A stretch of DNA of 28,876 nt from a virus. Lineage: Duplodnaviria > Caudoviricetes. Positions within the stretch are counted from its first letter, which is position 1. The number at the start of each line of letters is the position of its first letter. A program made the position numbers and the translations under genes. Under the pieces are notes generated by a model. That model saw only the letters and a program-made list of their open reading frames with translations, had not been told where the DNA came from and made no database searches. Of this stretch, positions 1 to 22,898 are shown in pieces. Where the stretch lies: IMG/VR virus record IMGVR_UViG_3300011442_000024, positions 1 through 28,876 of that record; one strand, given 5' to 3'.

Positions 1-260
1 GAGGCGTCGCCGCCGCTCTTCCCGTCCTTCTGGTCAGCAGGCTTCTGCTGGCCGTCCTTGTTGGCCTTGTCGTCGGCCGGTTTTTCTGCGGGCTTCTCGC
101 CCGGCTTCTCCGCTGGCTTCTCCGCCGGTTTCTCAGCAGGCTTCTCGGCCGGTTTTTCCGCTGGCTTCTCGCCGTCCTTGTTGCCGCCGCCAGATCCGTC
201 CGCGTTGGCGTCAGCGAACACGGGGGCTTGGAGGAACCCGTATCGCATCCACGTCTTCAT
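1..260 (-). CDS. Putative capsid scaffolding protein, N-terminal part (runs off the left edge)
   Basis: Not in the ORF track. ATG at 260 overlaps the upstream TGA (ATGA) and follows GGAG. Reads MKTWMRYGFLQAPVFADANADGSGGGNKDG(EKPA)n... and stays open to base 1. A low-complexity N-terminus after portal and Bbp19-like genes is the usual scaffold position. Confidence 0.7.
   Translation of the reverse strand, partial: MKTWMRYGFLQAPVFADANADGSGGGNKDGEKPAEKPAEKPAEKPAEKPAEKPGEKPAEKPADDKANKDGQQKPADQKDGKSGGDA
75..170 (-). repeat. 8 x 12-bp coding tandem repeat encoding EKPA (one EKPG)
   Basis: Units GAR AAR CCN GCN vary only at synonymous positions except one GGC, so the repeat is constrained at protein level. 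Confidence 0.9.
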
Positions 261-631
261 GTCTTCTTCTCCTGTGCGCTCGGTGTCCGAGCAGCTTCTG
301 CGCCCTTGTCATCGAACCGCGCGCGAGCGCGGGCTTCTGCACGGGCCTGCGCCCATGCGTCTTCGTCAGCGTCCTCGAACAACCGAAACAGCTCGAAGCC
401 GAAGTCCTGCCGCCCGGCCTTGAAGTACGTCACCGAGCCGGAGTGATCGAAGATCCCGGCCTGCACGCCAGCGGCCTGCACGATGCCCCACAGGACCGCG
501 CGCCCTTCGTAGGTCGACAGGACCGACTGGACGTACGCCGCGAGCTGCGCCTCGCGCCGACGGTCGGTGCGGGCCGCTTGTCCGACCTGGCCCGGGTCGG
601 CGGCGTTGCGAACAGCAGCACGGTCAGCCAT
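257..631 (-). CDS. Bbp19-like conserved phage head-region protein (124 aa)
   Basis: Start reassigned to ATG 631 (TGATG coupling). Motifs VLSTYEGRAVLW and TYFKAGRQDFG resemble the small protein found between portal and scaffold in BPP-1-like phages. Confidence 0.7.
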   Translation of the reverse strand: MADRAAVRNAADPGQVGQAARTDRRREAQLAAYVQSVLSTYEGRAVLWGIVQAAGVQAGIFDHSGSVTYFKAGRQDFGFELFRLFEDADEDAWAQARAEARARARFDDKGAEAARTPSAQEKKT

Positions 632-1503
632 CACAGGCCCGTGTTGACCAGCCGGTACCGCACCAGGACGCGCACGACGCCCGCAGCGGTGCCGGGGTCG
701 GTGAACGCGGCCGAGCTGACGAGCGACAGGCCCTTGGCGACCGTCCGCACCGTCGCACCGGCGGCCAGCGGCACGAACGTGGCGACCTTGTCGGTGGCCG
801 CCCCGAGCGAGTTCGCCGCGCTCACGAGGCCCGTGAGTGCCGCGCCGCCGGTCTCGTTCACGGTGATGTTGCCGCCAGCGGTGTACGCCGCCGTCGCGCG
901 GTCGCTGATGACCACGGCGCTCACCAGCTCGCATATCTGCGCCGCGCCGACCGCCGCGTCGGCGACCAGCGCGTAGCCGTTGGCGTGGCCGAAGTCTCCG
1001 GCGGCCGTGCCGATGATGGCGGCCTTGCTGATGGTGATCAGCTCGACGAACTCCTCGACGCTGCCCGGCAGGAGCTGCGAGACGCCGCCCTCCAGGACCA
1101 TCGGGAAGTGGAACACGATGCCGCCGTCGTCGCGACGCGACATGATCGGCCGTCCCTGGTCGTCGCGCATGAGGACACCGACCACGTCGCCAGTGACCTG
1201 GCTGATCGTGTAGTCGATGTCATCGGCGCTGCCCGCGTCCGTGCATTGGAGCATGTACTGCGCGCGGCTGTTCGGCGCGTCGTTCGTGATCACGCGCGCG
1301 GCCTCGGTGGCGGCGATGGCGACGGACGTGCCGTCCCAGGTCTCAATGATCTCCCACGAGCTGCCGCCGGTCAGGCTGCGCAGCAACGTGACGATGCCGT
1401 CGAACGTCTCGCCTGCGGCTGGCGCGACCAGCACGGAGATCGAGTTCAGGGCCTTGACGGGTTCGACTGCACTGAATCCTGTCGCTGAGAATGTGCCGGT
1501 CAT
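631..1503 (-). CDS. Hypothetical beta-rich virion protein, possibly capsid decoration (290 aa)
   Basis: ATGA-coupled to portal with a GGAG RBS. Rich in A/G/T/V and located in the head operon. Confidence 0.6.
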   Translation of the reverse strand: MTGTFSATGFSAVEPVKALNSISVLVAPAAGETFDGIVTLLRSLTGGSSWEIIETWDGTSVAIAATEAARVITNDAPNSRAQYMLQCTDAGSADDIDYTISQVTGDVVGVLMRDDQGRPIMSRRDDGGIVFHFPMVLEGGVSQLLPGSVEEFVELITISKAAIIGTAAGDFGHANGYALVADAAVGAAQICELVSAVVISDRATAAYTAGGNITVNETGGAALTGLVSAANSLGAATDKVATFVPLAAGATVRTVAKGLSLVSSAAFTDPGTAAGVVRVLVRYRLVNTGL

Positions 1504-3604: not shown

Positions 3605-4046
3605 CGAGCCTCTTGAGGAAAGCGATTTCCACTGCCTCGAAGCCTCGCCGCTCCAGGACCCTGCCGACCTCCGTGCCGTACGGCGTCGACATCTTTACCA
3701 CGTCGACTTTGTGTTGGGAACACCACACTAGGGCGGCGTCGACCAGGCGCAGGCCAGCGGTCCCGCGCTCCTCGGGATTGACCCACCAGGCGACCTCCTC
3801 GGCGAACGTGTCGTTGCTCATGTAGCTGGGCTGGACGACCATCGCGAGCGCGCCGATCAGGACGTCATCGCGCAGCGCCACGAACAGCACGCCGAACTGC
3901 ATGATCAGCGGCACGAGCGTCGACTCCAGCTTCTCGGGGGTGGCGTTGCTCCACTTGCCGAGCTTGGTCTCGCGCGCGAACCGCATCCCGAGCTTGATGA
4001 CGGCCGGGGTGTCTTCCACTTCGCCGAGTCGGATCTCTAGTCCCAC
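3486..4046 (-). CDS. GNAT-family N-acetyltransferase
   Basis: IRLGEVEDTPAV N-terminus, EVAWWVNPEERGTAGLRLV (acetyl-CoA motif A) and LERRGF (motif B). GGAG RBS before the GTG. Confidence 0.8.
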   Translation of the reverse strand: MGLEIRLGEVEDTPAVIKLGMRFARETKLGKWSNATPEKLESTLVPLIMQFGVLFVALRDDVLIGALAMVVQPSYMSNDTFAEEVAWWVNPEERGTAGLRLVDAALVWCSQHKVDVVKMSTPYGTEVGRVLERRGFEAVEIAFLKRLDVAVQQQGRDDSNDRRPDGSGRDDHATDHDPEPGPPASS

Positions 4047-5539
4047 GGGTTCTCCTGTCCTTCGCGTTCAGTGACCGCGCGCCCGCCGCGTCCCGAGCTG
4101 CGCGTGTTCTTGCCTGCGATGTGTGCGAGCGCGTCGGCGGGCATGTCCGGGATCGCGAACGTGAGCGCGAGCGCGTCGGCCAGATCCGGCGACCGGCCGA
4201 TCTTGATCTTGATCTGGTCCTTCTCTTCGAGGAGGAACTTGCCGTTGTGGAACGTGTACGTCGCCGCGCACAGCTCCTGCATCAGCCCGGCGGTCTTCGG
4301 CAGCCGGAGGCCTTGCTTGATCGCGCGCGTCATCTCGATCCACATCTCCGCGCGCCGGTTGTGGTACCGCACGTTGAGCGCCTTGTCGCTGAACACGACG
4401 CCCATCGCCGGATACCCGCCGGTGATCAGGTTGTCGATGACGCCGTGGCCCCAGTGACCCGTGTCGTCGACGAGGATCAGCTCCGCGTCCCACTTCACCA
4501 GCGCGTTGGCTGCAGCAGCGGCGATGTCCGTCGTCCGCTGCGTGCGCATCGTGATCGGCTTGTCGCTGTACATGCCCTGGCGCGGGAAGATGACGCTGCG
4601 GTCGTCGCCGAACCGCGCGACGTCGACGCCGAGCCGCTTCTGCGAGTGCGCGTAGTTCTCGGGACGGATGATCCGGTTCTGCGCGATCTCGACTTCCTCT
4701 TCGCTCACGAGCGCGTTGATGGCGGCCGGAGGGAACTTGCCGAGGATGTAGGCCTGCACCCACGGGTTGTCGCGGCCGTACTGTTTGATCTGCTGCTTCG
4801 CCCAGGCCAGCGGGCCAGGACCGACGCGCGGCGAATGCACCCAGGCCTTCGGGTCGTTCGGGTCGCCGGTGATCTTGATGACGATCCACTGGTCGCTCAG
4901 CTCGTACGCGGCCGCGCGCAGCATGCCTTCGAGCGAGATCGGGTTGCCGCCCTGGAGCAGCCGTCCGAAGATGCACGTCGACAGCGCCTGCTCCGCCGCG
5001 CGCAGCACCGTCGTCGGAATGCCGCCGCTCTCGTCGACGATGACGAACGGGTACGGCGAGTGCAGCCCGCTGAACGTCTGCCCCTGCTGCTCAGCGTTCG
5101 CGGTCTTCGGCCAGGTGCGCGCTTCGAGTCGCCAGGTCGCCGGATGGTCCTTGCAGAAGATGGCGGTCGCGGTCCAGGTGAACACCTCTGAGAGGAACGC
5201 GCTCACGCCTTGCCACTTCGCGAACTCCGCCCACAGGTTCGCCTTCAGGTTGTCGCCGGTGATCGACGTCGCCAGGCCCTTGGGGTGCGCGTGCTTGTCG
5301 CCCTGCGTGCAGAGGAACCACCAGCCGCACCAGCTCTCGACGGCGGTCTTGCCCGGGCCAGCGCAGGCCTGCATTGAGATGCGCGCGCGCTCCATCGCGG
5401 GGTTGCCGTACGCGAGCAGCGTCTCTTCTTGCCAGGGATCAGGGGTGACGTGGAACTGTTCGTTGACGAAGCGCAGGATGCCGCGCTCCTCCCGATAGCT
5501 GCGCAGCGCCTTCGCTGCATTCGACCACGCGCTGTTCAC
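4037..5539 (-). CDS. terL: Terminase large subunit
   Basis: Walker A ACAGPGKT, Walker B VIVDE, GNP coupling motif, and RNase H-like nuclease motifs LGVDVARFGDD and SPDLADALAL. Confidence 0.95.
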   Translation of the reverse strand: MNSAWSNAAKALRSYREERGILRFVNEQFHVTPDPWQEETLLAYGNPAMERARISMQACAGPGKTAVESWCGWWFLCTQGDKHAHPKGLATSITGDNLKANLWAEFAKWQGVSAFLSEVFTWTATAIFCKDHPATWRLEARTWPKTANAEQQGQTFSGLHSPYPFVIVDESGGIPTTVLRAAEQALSTCIFGRLLQGGNPISLEGMLRAAAYELSDQWIVIKITGDPNDPKAWVHSPRVGPGPLAWAKQQIKQYGRDNPWVQAYILGKFPPAAINALVSEEEVEIAQNRIIRPENYAHSQKRLGVDVARFGDDRSVIFPRQGMYSDKPITMRTQRTTDIAAAAANALVKWDAELILVDDTGHWGHGVIDNLITGGYPAMGVVFSDKALNVRYHNRRAEMWIEMTRAIKQGLRLPKTAGLMQELCAATYTFHNGKFLLEEKDQIKIKIGRSPDLADALALTFAIPDMPADALAHIAGKNTRSSGRGGRAVTEREGQENPWD

Positions 5540-5913
5540 TCCGCTTCTTTCCGTGACTCGGCGAGCAGATCCTCGAACGTCTTGTCGCGCAGGTTCACGG
5601 TCACACTGTGGCGGCCGCGCACCTTGTTGAGTTCCTTCCAGGCCCCGAGCTGCGTCTTCTCGTCGTACGCATGCTCCGCGAGATTGCGGACGCGCTCGTC
5701 GATGTACTCGTTGGTCAGATCGGTCTGCTTTTCACGCCTCGCGACACGGCGCGCGACGGCCTGTTGAATGTGGACTTTTTTCAACCACTTGTTGCCCACA
5801 GTTCCGGCGCTCTTCTTCGGCACGCCAGCGGTGATCGCGGCCCGGGTGGCGTTCCACTTCGCTGCGCCGACCAGGGCGTCGACGAAGACCGACTGCTTCC
5901 GGGTGAGCTTCAT
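5536..5913 (-). CDS. terS: Terminase small subunit
   Basis: LTRKQSVFV...NATRAAITAG...A.TVG.KWLKK..IQ HTH signature, directly upstream of terL. Confidence 0.9.
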   Translation of the reverse strand: MKLTRKQSVFVDALVGAAKWNATRAAITAGVPKKSAGTVGNKWLKKVHIQQAVARRVARREKQTDLTNEYIDERVRNLAEHAYDEKTQLGAWKELNKVRGRHSVTVNLRDKTFEDLLAESRKEAE

Positions 5914-6965: not shown

Positions 6966-7445
6966 TCACCGATGCCCGAACAGCCCGGCGAGGAACGTGA
7001 GGACCGTCCTGATCCACTTGATCGGGCCGACCTGCGGTCCTGTGTCCGGCACCATGACGTAGAAGTCGGTGGTGACCGTGGGCTGCGTGAACGATCCGTC
7101 GGCGAGCAGGAACCCCCCTATCGAGAGCTGGAAGTCGTGCCTGCCGTTGGTGAGCTGCGGGGCCGGGAGCTGGCTGACCGGAATGTTCACGCGGAACTGC
7201 GTGGTTGATCCCGGCGTCTGCTCCCAGGTCGGCGTCACGGTCATCGTCAGGTTGTCGACCTTGAGCGACACCGGCAAGGCCTGCGCCTCGGCGAGTGTCG
7301 GCACGGTCACGTCCTGACAGATCGTGAAGCCCTTGTTGATGACGATGTTCTTTGACTGCGCGTACGCGGTGACGCCGCCGGTGACTGCGTACCCGGCCAA
7401 CAGGCCGAGCAGCAAGCCGAGGACGTTCTGAGTGTGCCTCTTCAT
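6966..7445 (-). CDS. Exported/membrane protein with Sec-type signal peptide (159 aa)
   Basis: GGAGG RBS. MKRH followed by a hydrophobic stretch and AYA cleavage site, a beta-rich body and an amphipathic C-terminal helix WIRTVLTFLAGLFG. Confidence 0.75.
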   Translation of the reverse strand: MKRHTQNVLGLLLGLLAGYAVTGGVTAYAQSKNIVINKGFTICQDVTVPTLAEAQALPVSLKVDNLTMTVTPTWEQTPGSTTQFRVNIPVSQLPAPQLTNGRHDFQLSIGGFLLADGSFTQPTVTTDFYVMVPDTGPQVGPIKWIRTVLTFLAGLFGHR

Positions 7446-7777
7446 TCTGCCTCCAGGTATTTCAGATCATCGAGCAGCTCGTTGCGCACGAGACCGGTGA
7501 ACTCTTCCGGCCTCTGCCCTCCGCCGCTGTAGACGTAGTACTCGGGTAGTCCCTCGTTGAGCGCGCGCCAGTACGTCTTCGGCAGCGGCGTCGCGACGCG
7601 AATCAGGCGCGGGTCAATCGGGTTGCTTTTGAACCCCGCCTGGCCGATGGTGTGGACGGTCTTCTCGCCCCAGCTCACGAGCCACAGGGACGTGAGATCC
7701 GCCGCTTTACCCTTGAGGGTAGCGACCGGCGCGACCACCAGCGCGGTGAGCGCGGCGAGGAATGTGCGGCGGTTCAT
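7442..7777 (-). CDS. Tat-signal protein made of major-capsid-protein-like fragments (111 aa)
   Basis: Start reassigned to ATG 7777 (ATGA coupling, GGAG RBS). MNRRTFLAALTALVVAP is a twin-arginine signal, and the remainder matches remembered Bbp17-type capsid motifs (see findings). Confidence 0.75.
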   Translation of the reverse strand: MNRRTFLAALTALVVAPVATLKGKAADLTSLWLVSWGEKTVHTIGQAGFKSNPIDPRLIRVATPLPKTYWRALNEGLPEYYVYSGGGQRPEEFTGLVRNELLDDLKYLEAE

Positions 7778-8019
7778 TCTGCTCTCCACACCTCCAAGAC
7801 CTTCACGCCCTCTGCGTTGAGGGTGATCTGGACCTCGGACGTGCGACGAAGATACCACTTGTTCTGCCGCGCTCGCGACGGATCGCCTTCGACCAGGCTG
7901 AAGCCGCCCGGCACTTGGTTGTACGGCCGCATGAAGACGACGAGGCCCGAGCCGACCAGCTCGTTGGGCAGATCGATCTCGCGCCGGTCGGCCATCGGGA
8001 AGTCTGCGAGGACGCGCAT
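7774..8019 (-). CDS. Hypothetical protein (81 aa)
   Basis: Start reassigned to ATG 8019 (TGATG coupling, AAGGAG upstream). Reads MRVLADFPMADRREIDLP... Confidence 0.6.
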   Translation of the reverse strand: MRVLADFPMADRREIDLPNELVGSGLVVFMRPYNQVPGGFSLVEGDPSRARQNKWYLRRTSEVQITLNAEGVKVLEVWRAE

Positions 8020-9445: not shown

Positions 9446-9584
9446 CGGCGGTCCTCGTTTTCCAGTACGTCGGCGACTTCGGGCAGAGGCGACACGCGAG
9501 TACGATCGCTTTACCCTTCCACTCGTCACCCGCATGCTCGCCGCAGCAGGCCGGGCGATCCGTTGTGATCTTCGCCGTCTTCAC
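9213..9584 (-). CDS. Small Cys-rich hypothetical protein with long overlapping tail
   Basis: GTG 9584 is coupled (GTGA) to the MTase stop. Reads RPACC..H.......LACRLCPKSPTYWK and fills the 9445-9581 gap. Confidence 0.5.
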   Translation of the reverse strand: MKTAKITTDRPACCGEHAGDEWKGKAIVLACRLCPKSPTYWKTRTADADGERTQQTSGPRPPAVPAARGGGDRDGARRLRRDASQPAAVAGPPAGKTRPDHRGTAFDLTAPDPRWRVPGRAQR

Positions 9585-10183
9585 GCGAGCCGCTCGAAGA
9601 CGGAGAAGCAGCGGTCGCGGTTGTCGTAGCCGACCGTGACGCTGACCTTCGCGATCAGCTTCACCGTATCGCGCGGCGGCCTGGGGAACACGTAGTCCAA
9701 GACGCCGACGCGGCCGCCGATGACGCACACCGACAGGGCGTCCGCGAGCAGCTTCTTGATCGGCGGGAAGACGTCCGCGCCGACCCGGTAGTGCGCCGCG
9801 TCGACTTCGGTGTACGGCCGGTCGATCAGGATCGCGCGGTACCCCTCGGCCATGCCGTCGGCCGAGTTCCAGTCGCGGAACAGCTCGCGCAGGTGTGGAC
9901 TCGCGCCGACCAGCTCGAACGGTTCAGGAACGCCGTTGCGCAGGTCGCGGATGATGTCCGGCTTGCACTCCGGGTCGAGGTCGCAGGTGACGTCGTTCGG
10001 GCAGAGCTTGGCCCAGGTCGGGTACGACTTCACCATGCCGCCGCAGAGGTGCAGCACGGGTTCGGTCCTGGTGACCGGCATGAAGACGCGCGCCCGTTCG
10101 AGGAAGCCGTTGGGGTACGCCCCGTAGTACTTCACCTTCGGGCGCGCGAGTATCCAGACGTCGGTGATCGGCCGGTAGCTCAC
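9581..10183 (-). CDS. Compact amino(adenine)-methyltransferase-like protein
   Basis: YYGAYP, SAM-binding VLHLCGG, acidic TCDLD, and catalytic-type motif ILIDRPY (DPPY variant). Confidence 0.7.
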   Translation of the reverse strand: MSYRPITDVWILARPKVKYYGAYPNGFLERARVFMPVTRTEPVLHLCGGMVKSYPTWAKLCPNDVTCDLDPECKPDIIRDLRNGVPEPFELVGASPHLRELFRDWNSADGMAEGYRAILIDRPYTEVDAAHYRVGADVFPPIKKLLADALSVCVIGGRVGVLDYVFPRPPRDTVKLIAKVSVTVGYDNRDRCFSVFERLA

Positions 10184-10945: not shown

Positions 10946-11181
10946 GCAGGCAGCGAGGCGCGGACGGCCGCGTCCTTGCTCTCCAGGAGCTTGCGCAGGG
11001 CTACCGTGCGCTCAGGGCTGCGTTCGAGTGTGTGACAGAGATGGATCGCCAGGTCGCCGAACGGACGACTCACCACCTGCAGCGCGGGCGGCAGGTGTTC
11101 GTAGCTGAAGAACTTCAACATGGCCTCGCCGGTGAGATCCATCGCTTCTTTGATCGTCGTGGTCGCCTTCTGCTCGCTCAT
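10942..11181 (-). CDS. Small helical-hairpin protein, possible Acb2/Tad1-like anti-defence sponge (79 aa)
   Basis: Start reassigned to ATG 11181 (ATGA, AAGGAG RBS). Motif FFSYEHLP..LQ.VS.PF..LA...ERTVALRKLLESKDAAVRA. Confidence 0.6.
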   Translation of the reverse strand: MSEQKATTTIKEAMDLTGEAMLKFFSYEHLPPALQVVSRPFGDLAIHLCHTLERSPERTVALRKLLESKDAAVRASLPA

Positions 11182-12209
11182 GCTTTTGCTCCTTGCGCCC
11201 ATAGGCGCGCGTCGTTTCCGAAGACCGTCCAGCCGTCGACCTGGCGTCGCCCGAACAGCTCGACGTACGGGCCATCCGGGTACAGCGCAGTGATCAGCGA
11301 TCTGAAGTGTTCCGGCTTCTGCGAGTGTTCGCCGCTGCGCTTCACCGTCTGGATGCTCGCGTGGCTGTGCTTCTCGATCCCGATGTCCGGTGTTGCGCTG
11401 CCGCGCGTGCAGACCAGCAGCAGCTCGTGCTGCACGTACGAGTAGTGGCCCGGGCGACCGAGGACCTTGTCCCAACAGTAGTTGGTTTTGTACGTGAAGC
11501 CCCAGGCCTCCAGAACGTCGCGCGGGCCGGGGTTCTCCAGGAGGTGCGAGTTCGTCGACCACATGAACAGCACGGCGTCCGGCAGCGTGTGCGCCGCGAT
11601 GGGCAGCTTGCAGAGCTGCTCGATGGTCATGCCGTCGTAGCTGTCGTCGGCGGGCGTCTGTGAACCGTCCGGCATGGCCTTGTTGTTGTCGTACGTCCAG
11701 GGCGGGTCGGCGTAGAGGACGCGGAACTTACCCTTGAGGGTAGCCTGGCCCTCGATGATGCGCGGCCGCGTGATGCGCTTCACCGCCTTGATCGTTTCGC
11801 TGACCGTCAGCTCCTGATCGCGCGCGACCTTGAGGACTTTGAGCTGCTCCTTCAAGTCGAGGCTCGCGACCGCTTTGGCGTGCGTGATCGTTGGGGCCAG
11901 CTCGCGCGCCTTCGTGCCGACGTGCTTCGACACGTACGTCAGGTTGTGAATGGTCTGATGCGCCAGGCCGGTCATCGACACGAGCTGGTCGAACTTTTCT
12001 CCCCAGTCTTCGCGGTCAGCCGCGTACGCGAGGAGGTCCCCGACCCAGTAGGGCGAGGCCTCCTGCGTCGCGACCGCGAACGCGCTCGCCTCTGCCCACA
12101 TATCAGGCGTCGGACGGCCCACGGGTGTGACCGTCTTGTCCTTGAAGTGGAACCCGCGCAGCTTGATCGGGGTGCGGTCGAAGTGACCGCGCAGGGCGAG
12201 GCCGGTCAT
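11178..12209 (-). CDS. MT-A70 family N6-adenine methyltransferase with N-terminal LmbU-like domain
   Basis: VLYADPPW, LFMW.T, AWGF.YK...W.K, HELLLVCTRG, HSQKP and ELFGR..GW..FGN. N-terminal YWVGDLLAY motif. Confidence 0.9.
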   Translation of the reverse strand: MTGLALRGHFDRTPIKLRGFHFKDKTVTPVGRPTPDMWAEASAFAVATQEASPYWVGDLLAYAADREDWGEKFDQLVSMTGLAHQTIHNLTYVSKHVGTKARELAPTITHAKAVASLDLKEQLKVLKVARDQELTVSETIKAVKRITRPRIIEGQATLKGKFRVLYADPPWTYDNNKAMPDGSQTPADDSYDGMTIEQLCKLPIAAHTLPDAVLFMWSTNSHLLENPGPRDVLEAWGFTYKTNYCWDKVLGRPGHYSYVQHELLLVCTRGSATPDIGIEKHSHASIQTVKRSGEHSQKPEHFRSLITALYPDGPYVELFGRRQVDGWTVFGNDARLWAQGAKA

Positions 12210-22562: not shown

Positions 22563-22898
22563 TCAAGGCGTGACGATGACAGTGAGAACGCGCTGCGACG
22601 AGGATCCGTTGGGCGCGCGAGCGTTCAGGGTGAAGGTCGTGGTCACCGCCAGCACGACCGAGACGCTGCCGGTAGACGGCACGTTCCCGACCAGCGGGTC
22701 GATGCGCACGTCGACCTGTGCGCCCGCGACGTCCCAGCGCAGCGTGGCCTGGGTGCCTGCCTTGATCGAGAGCGAGTCGGCCGAGAACTGCGTGATGATC
22801 GGCGCGTCACCAGGCCCCGTCGGAGTCTTGAGCGAGTCACACCCGACGAGTGATGTGACGACAAACGCAACGAACAACACGAGCGCGAGCTTCTTCAT
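22563..22898 (-). CDS. Lipoprotein with Ig-like domain (111 aa)
   Basis: AGGAG RBS. MKK, hydrophobic stretch and LVG-C lipobox, then P.I..F.A....I..G....LRW.V...TTFTL.A beta-sandwich pattern. Confidence 0.8.
   Translation of the reverse strand: MKKLALVLFVAFVVTSLVGCDSLKTPTGPGDAPIITQFSADSLSIKAGTQATLRWDVAGAQVDVRIDPLVGNVPSTGSVSVVLAVTTTFTLNARAPNGSSSQRVLTVIVTP

Follow-up and report, generated by a model that had tools for sequence, protein, structure and literature searches.

The locus described here raises the question of what a small phage gene is for when it begins like an export signal and continues with pieces of a capsid protein joined out of order. This gene, P0001, lies in the window, by which we mean the whole stretch of DNA that was analysed: one contig of 28,876 bases, the whole record of a phage fragment. 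Every recognisable gene of the window is carried on the minus strand, and these include a large virion protein, an endolysin, ERF, helicases, a resolvase, methylases, the terminase subunits, the portal and a Bbp19-like gene. The contig breaks off within a low-complexity gene that its position suggests to be scaffold-like. P0001 itself is one of several small genes in a row, with 1.5 kb between it and the small terminase gene downstream.

The P0001 gene and its leader

The features to which the text refers are as follows.

7442..7777, minus strand: ORF P0001, 111 amino acids, twin-arginine-type leader and four capsid-derived pieces (profile, structure-chain and shuffle comparisons, codon use)
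7773..7787, minus strand: start junction, GGAG followed by a 10-base word that contains the upstream stop and the ATG
7712..7777, minus strand: leader, residues 1-22 (motif and composition; PF10518 below its cut-off)
7625..7711, minus strand: piece A, residues 23-51 with a core of 23-44, capsid 164-192, start of the beta-element with its loop and first strands (Pfam, solved chains, shuffles)
7598..7654, minus strand: stretch of residues 42-60, common to P0004 and overlapping the weak end of A (relative comparison)
7544..7597, minus strand: piece B, residues 61-78, capsid 56-73, outgoing strand and tip of the E-loop hairpin (solved chains, shuffles)
7490..7531, minus strand: piece C, residues 83-96, capsid 131-144, end of the long helix and following loop (solved chains, shuffles)
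7448..7483, minus strand: piece D, residues 99-110, capsid 35-46, short helix and strand ahead of the E-loop (solved chains, shuffles)
7441..7454, minus strand: end junction, the identical 10-base word and a GGAG for the gene that follows
6966..7445, minus strand: downstream coupled gene, 159 amino acids, hydrophobic N-terminus, without family; locus marker in other runs
7774..8019, minus strand: upstream coupled gene, 81 amino acids, no assigned function
4037..5913, minus strand: terminase large and small subunits, downstream of P0001
1500..3263, minus strand: portal (PF12236; family match)

P0001 reads from 7777 to 7442 with the twin-arginine leader at its N-terminus. A GGAG Shine-Dalgarno stands 6 nt ahead of the start, and ATGA junctions at both ends make the gene overlap the upstream stop and the downstream start, just as the first-pass annotation had described it: an ORF that bears a ribosome-binding site and is translationally coupled. 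Its codon use fits a real gene, with a GC3 of 0.83 and a codon adaptation of 0.57, while the five remaining frames reach 0.18-0.33. No longer forms of P0001 were found. The 9-base core of the junction word occurs only at these two sites on the minus strand of the window, and the matching ends suggest a cassette able to enter or leave scarlessly; no empty site, that is, a locus without the cassette, was seen. There are no repeats between the pieces, which rules out an array separated by repeats or recombinase sites.

The Tat motif is given as S-R-R-x-F-L-K followed by a moderately hydrophobic, uncharged region (available text of PMC6708511). The P0001 leader carries the twin-arginine motif as N-R-R-T-F-L-A, deviating at the first and last positions, and continues with 17 uncharged residues (mean hydropathy 2.1; 15-17 residues and 1.6-1.8 in the relatives described below) and then basic residues. 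It thus has the RR-x-F-L, uncharged stretch and trailing basic residues of Tat signal peptides (PF10518, TIGR01409). Unlike typical ones, it stays under the curated cut-offs (PF10518 gives 13.5 bits for P0001 and 21.1 for the best relative against a cut-off of 22.7, and TIGR01409 does not match P0001), its cargo has no predicted fold, and a by-eye reading found no strict Ala-x-Ala site in P0001 and none common to the relatives. The leader may be an uncleaved anchor. RR-x-F-L is present in all five family proteins, P0001 included, and the conserved RR motif anticipated at the outset was indeed seen, RR and F being kept in 5/5 members and RR-x-F in 4/4 relatives, though the leader helped to find them. 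This conservation is not separable from the use of the leader in finding the relatives, as a leader-free scan (B then D) gave 29 loci and no GP7 match. According to the same source, Tat usually refuses unfolded cargo, though it has exported unstructured segments as long as 110 residues (PMC6708511).

Capsid-derived pieces in P0001

The source family of all four pieces is that of the GP7/Bbp17 capsids (PF20911, NF045672, phrog_212; PDB 3j4u, 3j40, 8cjz). These proteins have about 330 residues in one HK97-type fold, whereas P0001 has 73 capsid residues, out of order and behind a leader. The Pfam GP7 model (PF20911) matches P0001 on residues 21-44 with 29.7 bits (cut-off 27), phrog_212 matches with an E-value of 8e-6, and the NCBIfam GP7-type model (NF045672) scores 24.7 bits, under its cut-off of 75. 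The solved capsids of BPP-1, epsilon15 and Carin1 match P0001 at separate places: A (164-192), B (55-73) and D (35-47) align with the BPP-1 chain (3j4u), and C (119-145) with that of epsilon15 (3j40).

A capsid profile was built from 20 loci collected by their portal, 14 of which had a GP7-type capsid and 13 of which, as non-duplicates, were used. On this 13-capsid profile, A, B, C and D score 67.7, 45.6, 31.8 and 30.6 and fall at positions 164-192, 56-73, 131-144 and 35-46, so that the order along P0001 is 4-2-3-1 of the capsid order. Among 1000 shuffles of the tail, the best segment scored as high as A, B, C and D in 0, 0, 6 and 6, respectively, and a score of the same rank was reached in 0; the fifth-best segment of the real tail (11.8) lies under the shuffle mean. 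The pieces fill 73 of the 89 residues after residue 22, and their best identity to any of 15 capsids is 16/29 for A, 11/18 for B, 9/14 for C and 6/12 for D.

The central claim of the first-pass annotation, a leader followed by four non-collinear capsid pieces whose capsid order is D, B, C, A and whose order in the ORF is A, B, C, D, is thereby borne out: the matches are specific, the profile positions agree and 0 of 1000 shuffles gave such a set. The four segments were likewise found, with amended limits, as C is best supported at residues 83-96 and the end of D overlaps the ribosome-binding site of the next gene, so that its last three or four residues need not be capsid-derived. The capsid family also fits the group to which the portal had been assigned, relatives with this portal carrying GP7-type capsids. 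A truncated capsid paralogue is ruled out, since the 111 residues of P0001 are non-collinear with the full-length GP7 capsid. On sequence comparison, then, P0001 is confirmed as a twin-arginine-type leader joined to four reordered GP7/Bbp17 capsid pieces. The stretch of residues 42-60 is possibly a portal piece and is offered as a lead only: its portal match was equalled in 4/1000 local shuffles and in 203/1000 whole-tail shuffles, the latter non-significant, and the P0001 and P0004 versions hit one identical portal column.

To place the pieces in the fold, we used a model of a related capsid (pLDDT 76; best structural match BPP-1, TM 0.74), in addition to the BPP-1 beta-element, which is given as residues 169-241 (available text of PMC3863775). 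The columns covered by the pieces have a mean conservation of 0.66, against 0.61 for random placements (p=0.044), a difference qualified by the fact that piece detection itself favours conserved columns; the most conserved capsid window (232-243) is unused. No confident fold was predicted for P0001 on a shallow, 4-row alignment (pLDDT 39, pTM 0.20), and its Atlas model has a pTM of 0.25. A complex prediction of the P0001 tail with a stand-in capsid (L004) gave a score of 0.00, uninformative either way.

The GP7-type capsid gene of this phage is absent from the 28,876-base contig. It probably lies just off the contig, because the capsid gene follows 0.9-4.7 kb past the portal in 12 related loci. 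In all 20 portal-related loci (233 kb), a P0001-type gene is absent.

Relatives, alleles and the wider class of leader-bearing ORFs

A search of 1.84 billion representatives returned seven matches, namely the query, three small leader-bearing proteins (P0002, P0003 and P0004), two capsids and one unrelated long protein, and a profile search added P0008. P0002 and P0008 have leader-A-B-D without C. In P0004 the leader is followed by the stretch common to P0001, then by a piece weakly like C, by B and by an end that resembles D, and P0003 has the leader, A and a portal piece (PF12236, E 0.005; 0/1000 shuffles). Pairwise identities of relatives to P0001 are 44/88, 42/95 and 36/78, and P0002 and P0008, at 44-50% identity, retain the scrambled order A-B-D. 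In its behaviour the family resembles a module that is reshuffled under selection.

P0001 to P0004 are single-member clusters, and in the ESM Atlas P0001 and P0008 had no match at 0.9 or above. Several additional scans gave no further A-B-D-type loci; one of them (22/64 parts) returned the window's own record and five leader-matched loci, of which four encode full-length, unrelated host-type proteins and one is cut by the contig end. Genome scans gave no prophage relative or host, annotated phages gave only capsid or chance matches to P0001, and viral contigs gave no relative of the downstream 159-residue gene.

The locus itself recurs in public runs. Identical contigs across B, C and D were found in the runs of two studies (X1, 7442-7627; X2, 7450-7599). 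In run X4, from another study, there is a relative with about 95% identical DNA in the downstream gene, and on its contig 7485-7555 is exchanged for 29 other letters; in a by-eye translation, the reading frame continues through these letters and the loose end behind 7587, and the result is the sequence of P0002. As the X4 sequence reads as P0002 beside a downstream gene about 95% identical, P0001 and P0002 can be considered two alleles at one locus, with B and D nearly unchanged and C and the stretch before B different; this swap is seen on one X4 contig at a depth of about 3. The X1 contigs leave 7628-7775 uncovered, and so the leader and A are supported by relatives and not by reads; a coverage hole of this kind proves nothing. 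Two short contigs of X3, an RNA run, lie near the 3' end of P0001 and are no evidence of transcription, and short leader matches in X1, X3, X4 and X5 resemble unrelated genes. An assembly error is an unlikely source of P0001.

An imperfect inverted repeat pairs 7521-7542 with 7570-7590, that is, DNA of piece B with the start of the swapped stretch. It matches at 14/17, a level reached in 5/200 synonymous resamplings, and is a possible trace of template switching; a hairpin origin of the start of C is offered as a lead.

A scan of viral contigs for the leader pattern alone gave 41 loci with 45 candidate ORFs. Nine of these were duplicates, one lacked a true leader and one encoded a 339-residue protein; the other 34 were kept, three of them near kin. 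Five of these 34 (L124, L129, L139, L142 and L153) match a capsid or portal family at E < 0.05, as do 0 of 58 neighbouring small ORFs used as controls (Fisher p=0.006), among which there was one partial small-terminase match and one low-complexity virion match. The screen of small leader-bearing phage ORFs that the first-pass annotation had called for thus turned up an excess of capsid or portal matches. L123 and L151 match the capsid gene of their own contig (E 3e-4 and 1e-7) in a comparison confined to the leader ORFs. In total, 7/34 tails are traced to capsid or portal and 27/34 are untraced.

At L142:622-906 (plus strand), 470 bases upstream of the portal gene of the same contig, a 94-residue protein combines the leader with GP7 piece C and a piece of portal. 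Between fragment and own gene in L123, L142 and L151, codon positions 1, 2 and 3 agree at 45, 53 and 40 of 85, a comparison biased by the choice of these pairs for protein likeness; the pattern would fit old capture with constraint at the protein level. The own gene ranks 1/21 as best match in L142 and 11/15 in L124.

Other leader-bearing ORFs were noted in passing. L051:10184-10579 (minus strand) has a leader and fragments of another capsid family (phrog_371, E 7e-5), and its 14-kb contig carries three small ORFs with a leader. L140:2793-3812 (minus strand) encodes a 339-residue tail-fibre-like protein (phrog_863, E 9e-11) that begins with a matching twin-arginine-type leader. The leader ORFs of L132, L154 and L158 are near kin, and at their ends there is a weak likeness to a tail-protein C-terminus (phrog_38396; for L154, E 0.36); tail-protein fragments may also be used in leader ORFs.

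Possible roles of the product

Our tentative reading, to which we give somewhat less than an even chance, is that the P0001 product serves as a decoy, targeted to the membrane, for immune proteins of the host that read short motifs of the capsid. The first-pass annotation had proposed the binding of CapRel- or Lit-like sensors with tethering or export through Tat, and this idea stays the leading guess. P0001 would be made just before or together with the capsid protein, and its leader would dock it at the Tat translocase or in the membrane, where the tail, probably unfolded, would present several capsid motifs. A sensor binding one motif could be held at the membrane, exported from the cytoplasm or degraded together with P0001, and it would stay off since the remainder of the capsid fold is missing. 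The pieces would have been copied long ago from head genes via illegitimate recombination and would now be reshuffled among alleles, as an arms race would predict. Bound partners can reportedly travel with Tat cargo. Because Tat usually rejects unfolded cargo, the bound sensor may just as well be tethered, or degraded along with P0001, as exported.

Several observations favour the decoy. The fast in-frame swapping of pieces fits an arms race, and the proposed timing agrees with the position of P0001, which precedes the packaging and head genes and shares their strand. No integrase was found in the 83 ORFs scanned, part of the genome being missing, which fits action during lytic growth; the slightly more conserved columns used by the pieces also speak for it. 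The fragment sources, capsid and portal, are both established triggers of bacterial immunity, as stated in the available part of bioRxiv 10.64898/2026.01.04.697583. In the same text, Lit and CapRel are said to detect capsid through short motifs, whereas Avs7, Avs8 and Avs10 sense it by folded shape, which argues against Avs proteins as targets of P0001. CapRel-SJ46, which binds capsid protein (available text of PMC9712102), and Avs7/8/10 are host capsid sensors and as such candidate targets; unlike P0001, they are host defence proteins. Against the decoy stand the facts that most leader-picked tails are unexplained, that the most conserved capsid window is skipped, that the own gene is sometimes not the best fit (L124), and that the leader is under the curated Tat cut-offs in addition to the usual rejection of unfolded cargo; a capsid motif could equally trigger a sensor.

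A broader form of the decoy is possible and, in our judgement, doubtful: phages may maintain mini-proteins with an export tag as a general library that recombines, each a string of conserved motifs from capsid, portal or other virion proteins, and use them as modular decoys, clearing pattern-recognition sensors from the cytoplasm via the host Tat system. If so, the tails would list the virion motifs watched by uncultured bacteria.

The free exchange of the tails and the lack of a confident fold for P0001 raise an alternative, namely that the leader is the working part, for example by occupying or jamming the Tat translocase or perturbing the membrane, and that the tail is tolerated filler from abundant late-gene DNA. 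The leader is indeed far more uniform than the tails, and 27 of the 34 leader-picked tails have no capsid or portal match. However, filler would be expected to come from any gene or frame and to decay, whereas here four in-frame capsid pieces make up 73/89 residues, the A-B-D order persists at less than 50% identity and third codon positions have drifted more than second. We hold this explanation to be unlikely.

The pieces could also act on the virion itself, binding nascent capsid subunits, scaffold or chaperones and so poisoning head assembly of co-infecting relatives or pacing that of the phage, with the leader pulling captured subunits to the membrane. That the pieces come from elements central to assembly, namely the E-loop, a helix end and a strand of the beta-element, and that some fragments fit the genes of other phages better than the own gene is consistent with such interference, which is a known strategy: mobile elements carry the Tai tail-assembly inhibitors, small accessory proteins with an action on virion assembly, although they block tail assembly, and the available text (PMC11364771) gives no sign that they copy virion fragments behind a leader. 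Lying ahead of the head genes in a run on one strand, however, P0001 would be made when the phage's own capsid is made, and the lack of an integrase in the 83 ORFs leaves protection of the prophage type unsupported, the rest of the genome being missing. Assembly interference appears quite unlikely.

Display outside the cytoplasm seems improbable. Here the protein would be exported, or anchored facing outward, and its capsid motifs, displayed on released vesicles or within the periplasm, would act on envelope sensors, superinfecting particles or neighbouring cells; the RR-x-F-L and the uncharged stretch of 15-17 residues in all five family proteins would suit it, as would the hydrophobic N-termini of neighbouring genes. 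Yet capsid proteins are cytoplasmic, the sensors in the cited papers (CapRel, Avs) act inside the cell as far as the available texts describe them, and there is no clear cleavage site. Neutral recombination debris or an assembly chimera is very improbable and largely refuted by contigs, relatives and coding signals: P0001 is a single-sequence cluster and no independent contig bridges the leader and A across the X1 gap, but identical B-C-D contigs occur in the runs of two studies, there are four independent relatives, identity of the pieces to the closest known capsid is no more than 50-64%, and the gene has a clean frame, codon bias and coupling.

For the membrane-targeted decoy, the closest known logic is that of DSAD1, which blocks DSR2 by competing with a tail tube protein (available text of PMC11087589), that is, a phage protein competing with a virion protein for the site on a sensor. 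DSAD1 is one protein against one sensor, and its description, by which it was compared, mentions no export leader or string of virion fragments in the part available. We found no description of a gene of reordered virion fragments behind an export leader in a literature search that left subscription journals largely outside and supplements unread, and the term twin-arginine is absent from the available part of a 2026 review (PMC13728456). The design of P0001 is apparently undescribed. In PADLOC, 0/12 proteins matched known or candidate defence models. If P0001 is a decoy, it would represent a new anti-defence principle, and its tails would point to the motifs read by bacterial sensors and serve as baits to find those sensors. 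Whatever its role, the locus shows in-frame module swapping within a small phage gene between close relatives and is a clear case of new proteins assembled from pieces of essential ones.

Elsewhere in the window, a 290-residue gene without family (631-1503, minus strand) lies between the portal and the Bbp19-like gene and is unmatched in the related loci collected. A second methyltransferase-like gene is found at 9581-10183, in addition to an MT-A70-type methyltransferase at 11178-12209 (minus strand) whose N-terminal part is weakly ParB-HTH-like. Finally, the ORF at 22563-22898 (minus strand) begins with a leader of lipoprotein type, and its next domain is similar to parts of long structural proteins of virions (phrog_2155, E 1e-9).
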